This document shows positions 11,209 through 12,807 of a DNA stretch of 64,000 nucleotides, piece by piece (position 1 is the stretch's first letter; every line of letters starts with the position of its first letter). The translations under genes were made by a program, and so were the position numbers. The notes beneath the pieces are model-generated. The model saw nothing but the letters and a program-made list of their open reading frames with translations, was not told the origin of the DNA and did not search any database. The DNA lies in the NCBI RefSeq assembly GCF_057098645.1, contig NZ_CM169472.1. One strand, written 5' to 3'.

Positions 11209-12807
11209 ATGCGTAAAACAGTGGCTTTTGGCTTTGTCGGAACGGTGCTGGATTATGCCGGGCGCGGCAGTCAGCGCTGGTCGAAATGGCGTCCGACGCT
11301 TTGTTTATGCCAGCAAGAATCGTTGGTCATCGATCGACTGGAATTGTTGCATGACGCCCGCTCGCGCTCGCTGTTTGAAACGCTTAAACGCGATATCGCC
11401 AGCGTTTCTCCAGAAACAGAAGTGGTGAGCGTTGAGATTGAACTGCATAACCCGTGGGATTTCGAAGAGGTTTACGCCTGCCTGCATGATTTCGCCCGTG
11501 GTTACGAGTTTCAGCCAGAAAAAGAAGACTATTTAATTCACATCACCACCGGCACCCACGTCGCGCAGATTTGCTGGTTTCTGCTGGCGGAAGCGCGTTA
11601 CCTGCCCGCCCGGTTGATACAATCTTCACCTCCGCGCAAAAAAGAACAGCCGCGCGGCGCAGGTGAAGTGACGATTATCGATCTCGATTTAAGCCGTTAT
11701 AACGCCATCGCCAGCCGCTTTGCCGAGGAACGCCAGCAAACGCTTGATTTTCTTAAATCCGGCATTGCCACGCGTAACCCGCACTTCAACCGCATGATTG
11801 AACAGATCGAAAAAGTGGCGATTAAATCCCGCGCACCGATCCTGCTAAACGGCCCAACCGGTGCGGGCAAGTCATTTCTGGCGCGACGTATATTTGAATT
11901 AAAACAGGCGCGGCATCAGTTTGGCGGCGCGTTTGTGGAAGTGAACTGCGCAACCCTGCGCGGCGATACCGCCATGTCGACGCTGTTTGGTCATGTGAAA
12001 GGCGCGTTTACCGGAGCGCGGGAATCTCGTGAAGGATTATTACGCAGCGCCAACGGCGGAATGTTGTTTCTTGATGAGATTGGCGAACTGGGCGCAGACG
12101 AACAGGCAATGCTGCTTAAAGCCATTGAAGAAAAAACCTTTTATCCGTTTGGCTGCGATCGCCAGGTGAGCAGTGATTTTCAGCTTATCGCCGGAACGGT
12201 GCGTGATTTGCGCCAGCTGGTTGCCGAAGGAAAATTTCGCGAAGACCTGTACGCGCGGATCAATCTCTGGACCTTCACCCTGCCGGGGCTACGCCAGCGC
12301 TAGGAAGATATTGAACCTAACCTGGATTATGAAGTGGAGCGTCACGCCGCGCTTACCGGCGACAGCGTGCGTTTTAACACCGAAGCGCGGCGCGCCTGGC
12401 TGGCCTTTGCGACATCTCCCCAGGCAACATGGCGCGGTAACTTTCGCGAACTTTCTGCCAGCGTCACGCGGATGGCGACGTTTGCCACGAGCGGACGCAT
12501 TACTCTGGAAGTGGTTGAAGATGAGATAAACCGTCTGCGCTATAACTGGCAGGAGAGCCGCCCCTCCGCGCTTACGCAGCTACTGGGCGCAGAGGCAGAA
12601 AACATCGATCTCTTCGACCGTATGCAACTGGAACACGTTATCGCAATCTGCCGCCAGGCAAAGTCGCTTTCCGCAGCCGGACGCCAGCTTTTTGACGTTT
12701 CGCGCCAGGGCAAAGCCAGCGTCAATGACGCGGATCGGCTACGCAAATACCTGGCGCGTTTTGGTCTGACGTGGGAAGCCGTGCAGGATCAGCACAGCTC
12801 CAGTTGA
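11209..12807 (+). pseudogene. rtcR: sigma-54-dependent activator RtcR, interrupted by an in-frame TAG at 12301-12303
   Basis: 364 aa ORF containing the GAFTGA motif stops at TAG, and the same frame continues for 167 more codons to 12807; the two parts together give the 532 aa expected for RtcR. Confidence 0.8.

Follow-up and report, generated by a model that had tools for sequence, protein, structure and literature searches.

The rtcR gene in the 64,000-nucleotide stretch of DNA analysed here (the window) is interrupted by an in-frame amber codon, and our results suggest, with a probability of roughly 0.9, that this is a genuine and vertically inherited null allele, on its way to becoming a pseudogene, within one sub-lineage of Escherichia coli O145:H28 in which the rtcBA operon would, by inference, no longer be inducible. 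The stop has arisen by one C>T transition at position 12301, which changes CAG (Gln365) to TAG (Q365*) relative to all intact alleles examined. The resulting product of 364 residues keeps the CARF sensor and the AAA+ alpha/beta core, including Walker A, Walker B, GAFTGA and the R-finger segment, and is without both the helical lid, which carries the sensor-II arginine, and the entire C-terminal domain, through which RtcR binds its upstream activating sequence (UAS).

Reading of rtcR starts from the ATG at 11209 on the plus strand and proceeds through 364 sense codons to the TAG at 12301–12303, past which the same frame continues for a further 167 sense codons to a TGA at 12805–12807. With codon 365 read as glutamine the frame encodes 532 residues, with the same length and coordinates as the rtcR CDS annotated in O145:H28 strains RM12761 and RM9872. 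The rtcBA operon lies divergently and is preceded by a sigma-54 (−24/−12) promoter, an arrangement that is among the features by which RtcR is recognized. The promoter sequence, TGGCACGACGGTTGCA, has a single exact occurrence in the window where chance would give 0.07, and the intergenic region as a whole (11021–11208) has zero differences from RM12761 or RM9872, in both of which rtcR is intact. An earlier note on this DNA had described the same frame (364 codons, the amber codon, 167 further codons and 532 residues in total), all of which we reproduce, and had also called the rtcBA promoter intact; the promoter is indeed intact, but it occupies 11059–11074 on the minus strand rather than 11057–11073 as given there, a shift of 1–2 nt.

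The domains retained and lost were delineated by profile searches and by alignment to the solved structures of NtrC1, ZraR, FleQ and PspF. An N-terminal CARF domain is present (Pfam RtcR/CARF, PF06956, residues 2–185, nt 11212–11763, 288 bits), as is a central AAA+ domain (Sigma54_activat, PF00158, residues 187–355, nt 11767–12273, 171.8 bits). The NCBIfam equivalog profile for RtcR (NF038308, cut-off 650 bits) scores 851 bits against the intact O145:H28 protein; the translated 364 residues score 620.7 bits over profile positions 1–360, which is below the cut-off, and the 167 codons behind the stop score 206.3 bits over positions 362–529, with an additional Pfam match to AAA_lid_14 (24.9 bits) in the same region. 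The 364-residue product therefore does not have, on one polypeptide scoring above 650 bits, both a lid with sensor II and a DNA-binding C-terminal domain, and, judged by these profiles, the gene is rtcR by descent and its predicted product an incomplete RtcR. The stop falls within a conserved LRxRxEDI segment that joins the AAA+ alpha/beta core to the helical lid (LPGLRQR-Q-EDIEP in RtcR, ipplrerkedi in NtrC1). We take the C-terminal region at about 12628–12768 to be HTH-like, from what is known of the family and from the published extent of the C-terminal domain. Kotta-Loizou et al. (2022, PMC9650030) divide RtcR into CARF (residues 1–186), AAA+ (187–353) and C-terminal (354–532) domains and describe binding of RtcR to a UAS. 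The earlier note had placed the stop downstream of GAFTGA and had proposed that it removes the distal AAA+ region together with the DNA-binding domain at the C-terminus; GAFTGA does lie upstream of the TAG, and the Pfam, NCBIfam and structure alignments agree on the loss, the distal AAA+ part being the lid with sensor II. The RtcR similarity of the downstream 167 codons, on which that proposal depended, is confirmed by the profile match to them. Coordinates of all features are collected in Table 1.

Table 1. Features of the rtc locus and derived substitutions on the branch leading to the window (window coordinates).
Feature	Residues	Position	Strand	Basis or remark
rtcA, RNA 3'-phosphate cyclase, full-length		8762..9790	-	ancestral base at 9761
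rtcB, RNA ligase, full-length	408 aa	9794..11020	-	D392E (A>C at 9845)
Sigma-54 promoter of rtcBA, -24 TGGCAC, -12 TTGCA		11059..11074	-	exact motif match
rtcR pseudogene	532 codons	11209..12807	+	frame if codon 365 = Gln
RtcR(1-364), translated part and TAG	1-364	11209..12303	+	ORF; Pfam RtcR and Sigma54_activat
Walker A GPTGAGKS, kept	215-222	11851..11874	+	motif search, NtrC1 alignment
GAFTGA sigma-54 contact loop, kept	265-270	12001..12018	+	motif search, NtrC1 alignment
Walker B, kept	286-293		+	
S316C (AGC>TGC), derived missense	316	12154..12156	+	segment FYPFG(S/C)DRQ; later than stop; Ser316 with stop recorded, full-length Cys316 unrecorded
R-finger segment FREDLYARI, kept	343-351		+	
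Premature amber codon Q365*	365	12301..12303	+	derived C>T, within LPGLRQR-Q-EDIEP junction (aa 358-370)
Untranslated remainder of rtcR: AAA+ lid, sensor II, C-terminal HTH-like DNA-binding region		12304..12807	+	RtcR profile, AAA_lid_14, NtrC1 alignment
Sensor II GNFRELS in lid, lost	410-416	12436..12456	+	aligned with NtrC1 lid 'gnvrel'
C-terminal HTH-like DNA-binding region (presumed), lost		about 12628..12768	+	family knowledge; C-terminal domain 354-532 (PMC9650030)
Derived substitution, rtcB		9845		D392E
Derived substitution, rtcR		12154		S316C
Derived substitution, rtcR		12301		Q365*
Derived substitution, hypothetical protein		17853		G64E
Derived substitution, yhhW		35505		synonymous
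Derived substitution, livF		50459		synonymous
Derived substitution, ftsX		59684		M227V

Several lines of evidence indicate that the amber codon is real and inherited. The window belongs to the O145:H28 lineage; 26 complete genomes match it at 99% or more, and its first 25 kb are ∼5 bases away from the best of these. Codon 365 is CAG in the nearest complete genomes, RM12761 and RM9872, and also in the outgroups PE164, ATCC 8739 and SCU-316, and the TAG is therefore derived. A 70-mer containing the TAG has no exact match among 5,426 complete RefSeq E. coli genomes. When about 15 billion collected proteins are searched for identical sequences, the 364-residue product of the window (Cys316) is found on ∼14 contigs from NCBI and Logan assemblies and the truncated RtcR with the ancestral Ser316 on ∼18 contigs, so that the truncated product is on record on ∼32 contigs in total, from independent NCBI, SRA, ENA and DDBJ assemblies (among them GCA_029357705.1, GCA_040830465.1, GCA_015676305.1, GCA_050372055.1 and SRR, ERR and DRR runs). 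Two of the TAG-bearing assemblies have no protein-coding gene recorded across rtcR in the collection. All 11 loci read carry T at 12301, all of those that reach rtcB carry C at 9845, and position 12154 is either A or T.

The order of these changes is suggested by the same records. Full-length RtcR with Cys316 is absent from the collection of about 15 billion proteins, which argues that S316C arose later than the stop. RtcB with Glu392 is found on at least 38 contigs and in 56 blocks of the index of the collection, and every locus read that has it also has the TAG; no example of it beside an intact rtcR was found among the 24 contigs read. As read from these sequences, the haplotypes are nested, with RtcB D392E and RtcR Q365* first and RtcR S316C, which gives the allele of the window, later on the already truncated gene. 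Such a nested pattern in independent assemblies points to inheritance rather than base-calling error. The lesion is defined against intact orthologues of the closest relatives and is inherited rather than an artefact of assembly, as is expected of a pseudogene. The earlier note had left open whether the TAG was an allele or an error, and had pointed to the comparison of CAG and TAG among E. coli rtcR alleles and to a possible sense codon at 12301–12303 on resequencing; the comparison gives CAG in all five other alleles and TAG in the window, independent assemblies show TAG at these positions, and the question is settled in favour of a genuine allele.

Truncation at this point has probable consequences for the regulation of RNA repair. 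Induction of the rtcBA promoter depends on RtcR (PMC5175333, PMC9650030). RtcR(1–364) is predicted neither to form an assembly at the enhancer nor to support productive ATP hydrolysis. The sigma-54 holoenzyme requires an activator (bEBP) for promoter opening and, since the lid and the DNA-binding domain are both lost, rtcBA is most likely uninducible, as the earlier note had suggested for an amber codon that is not suppressed, and expressed at a basal level alone. The intact rtcBA promoter would stay closed, and RtcB and RtcA would remain at their basal level whatever the damage to RNA. Both rtcB and rtcA are full-length, and decay is not yet visible beyond the regulator. A C-terminal fragment of 157 residues starting from a GTG at 12334, called by some gene finders, was considered as a functional product and rejected; no Shine-Dalgarno-like sequence was seen by eye upstream of this codon, and a lid and DNA-binding domain alone could not activate. 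The locus is better annotated as one pseudogene than as the two genes (364 and 157 residues) that some gene callers propose.

The allele can be set beside characterized activators. Intact E. coli RtcR (532 residues, NF038308) shares with the window the divergent rtcBA operon, the TGGCAC-N5-TTGCA promoter and a glpR gene convergent at the 3' end, and the intact O145:H28 allele is 99.9% identical to that of the window; it differs in having CAG rather than TAG at codon 365 and AGC rather than TGC at codon 316, and its product continues through both lid and DNA-binding domain. PspF(1–275), also an AAA+ sigma-54 activator without a C-terminal HTH, shows in vitro activity when its concentration is high, but it keeps the lid and sensor II (PspF chains were matched in the alignment through residue ∼236 of chains of 259–295 residues), whereas RtcR(1–364) is without the lid and still has the repressive CARF domain, and residual activity would therefore not be expected. 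A further counterpart is the engineered RtcR1–353 (CARF and AAA+) of Kotta-Loizou et al. (2022, PMC9650030), which has nearly the same boundaries as the natural 1–364 product and keeps the CARF domain, known to bind RtcA and RtcB, although it is a laboratory construct for two-hybrid assays. The CARF domain retained here could still bind RtcA and RtcB.

Loss of rtcR is not confined to this lineage. A remnant of about 24% of rtcR is all that 586 of the 5,424 complete genomes of E. coli retain; in the example read, a deletion joins a remnant of rtcA to the 3' end of rtcR (rtcA'-rtcB-'rtcR) and removes rtcB. An in-frame deletion of RtcR residues 14–331 at a shared 'GTV' (protein P0049, loci L022–L025) is found in 148 blocks of the index of the collection, a 1-bp frameshift near codon 319 (protein P0051, loci L026–L028) is accompanied in L027 and L028 by a split rtcB, and one genome has an IS1 insertion in rtcR. 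Some of these lesions leave rtcBA intact, namely those in L022–L026, with rtcA having no called gene in L023 and being cut by the end of the locus in L026; in the outgroup PE164, rtcB is frameshifted. The rtcR lesions are all loss-of-function lesions of the same gene as in the window, but they are other mutations in other lineages, whereas the point nonsense allele described here is restricted to the O145:H28 subclade. The repeated lesions of rtcR across lineages imply that Rtc is a dispensable accessory function that E. coli recurrently loses. The allele of the window is part of a known system, an ordinary lineage-specific nonsense mutation with no new mechanism. A poorly targeted literature search, its terms too broad, returned only irrelevant papers and no report of a published rtcR nonsense or pseudogene allele in O145.

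The branch leading to the window carries few substitutions. Differences over the 64 kb were collected by ungapped comparison and then by BLAST against RM12761 and RM9872, and were polarized with PE164, yielding seven derived substitutions in about 63 kb (Table 1); an apparent SNP at 40073 was discarded as an alignment-edge artefact of an IS5 insertion. S316C arose on the background of the stop, and the frame downstream is still open, as is expected with so few SNPs on the branch. Three of the seven fall within the 4-kb rtc locus and all three alter protein, giving a nonsynonymous to synonymous ratio of 3:0 in rtc against 2:2 elsewhere. Conditional on the TAG, two or more of the other six SNPs would lie in the rtc locus with a probability of 0.05 (the unconditional p is about 0.008). 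This clustering is marginal and was spotted post hoc, and is a weak lead, too weak to claim selection. Import of the three SNPs as a recombination patch finds no support, as a functional donor could not supply a nonsense codon and the derived bases are missing from all five of the other alleles compared.

Alternative readings of the locus can be weighed against these observations. A sequencing or assembly error at a true CAG would account for the absence of the TAG from the complete RefSeq genomes, and a one-base difference is the typical form of such errors; however, the T recurs together with the linked 9845C in 11 loci from independent assemblies and read sets, and S316C splits these loci into two groups, as inheritance predicts and error does not, so that this reading has next to no probability and is effectively refuted. 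Alternatively, the amber codon might be read through, by a suppressor tRNA or by a near-cognate tRNA-Gln, often enough to supply functional RtcR, in which case the allele would be leaky rather than null. Near-cognate tRNA-Gln may decode UAG, insertion of glutamine would restore the wild-type protein, and the 167 downstream codons are both open and identical to those of the intact allele. An open frame is, however, to be expected anyway in a lineage as young as this one, amber suppressors are rare in natural isolates, and the gene has accumulated an additional missense change, S316C, after the stop; no tRNA gene lies within the 64-kb window. We regard read-through as very unlikely.

It is also conceivable that the truncation is adaptive, either because loss of induction has been selected or because the fragment comprising CARF and the AAA+ core has acquired a new role, for example in titrating RtcA, RtcB or the ligand, a tRNA fragment with a cyclic phosphate. 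The concentration of protein-changing SNPs in rtcB and rtcR, with its conditional chance of 0.05, and the many independent losses of rtcR in E. coli are consistent with such a view, as is the finding that the CARF domain by itself interacts with both RtcA and RtcB and acts as a repressor in trans (PMC9650030). The clustering is nevertheless marginal and post hoc, counts of 3:0 and 2:2 are too small for significance, D392E is a conservative change, and recurrent loss is equally expected of a dispensable accessory system; an adaptive origin of the truncation is accordingly given very little weight. The broader proposition, that disabling of the Rtc response has been repeatedly selected in E. coli and that D392E, Q365* and S316C are adaptive here, is likewise considered improbable. 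Were it true, the benefit may lie in escape from the costs of Rtc induction, in avoided interference with prophage nucleases or with resident toxins that target tRNA, or in sequestration of RtcA, RtcB or the ligand by the retained CARF-AAA+ fragment. An inherited loss of function in a dispensable regulator remains the preferred reading.

O145:H28 is a serotype that produces Shiga toxin, and the allele marks a subclade of it that is naturally rtcR-null, which is of modest practical value. Mutants deleted for rtcR or rtcBA are more readily harmed by VapC, colicin D and tetracycline (PMC5175333), and strains of the clade may by analogy be sensitized to toxins that cleave tRNA, VapC and colicin D among them, as well as to ribosome-targeting antibiotics of the tetracycline type. 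Isolates of the clade could serve as natural controls in studies of Rtc function, and the nested SNPs 12301T and 9845C, then 12154T, provide handy lineage markers.

Some further features of the window were observed. A gene for a DUF1778 (TacA-like) antitoxin is paired with one for a GNAT acetyltransferase at 7958–8712, between malT and rtcA and immediately beside the RNA-repair genes; O145:H28, PE164 and SCU-316 all have the pair, ATCC 8739 does not have it at this position, and an NCBIfam search gave no match for either protein. A second GNAT-type toxin-antitoxin pair, ataT/ataR by the annotation of RM12761, lies at about 55881–56681 between panM and livJ, its coordinates being carried over from RM12761 after correction for a 1-bp indel and the IS5 insertion. 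Over two stretches (16674–20280 and 37897–41776) the window fails to align to PE164, and these appear to be variable islands: the unaligned part at 17320–18783 lies in a block of hypothetical genes with a PstS-family gene, and the second stretch is the tssD/yrhA/yrhD/yrhB block, PE164 having instead a RecQ/DprA insert between gntU and yhgN. An IS5 copy at 38879–40074, missing in O145:H28 RM12761 and RM9872, is inserted in a tssD-like pseudogene, with terminal repeats GGAAGGTGCGAATAAG and CTTGTTCGCACCTTCC and a TTAG target duplication, and encodes a transposase of 326 residues (39026–40006, minus strand; NCBIfam IS5, 367 bits). Between livK and panM, an A-run (ctgAaaaaaaaa) at 55398 is polymorphic in length, the window and RM9872 having one A more than RM12761 and PE164.
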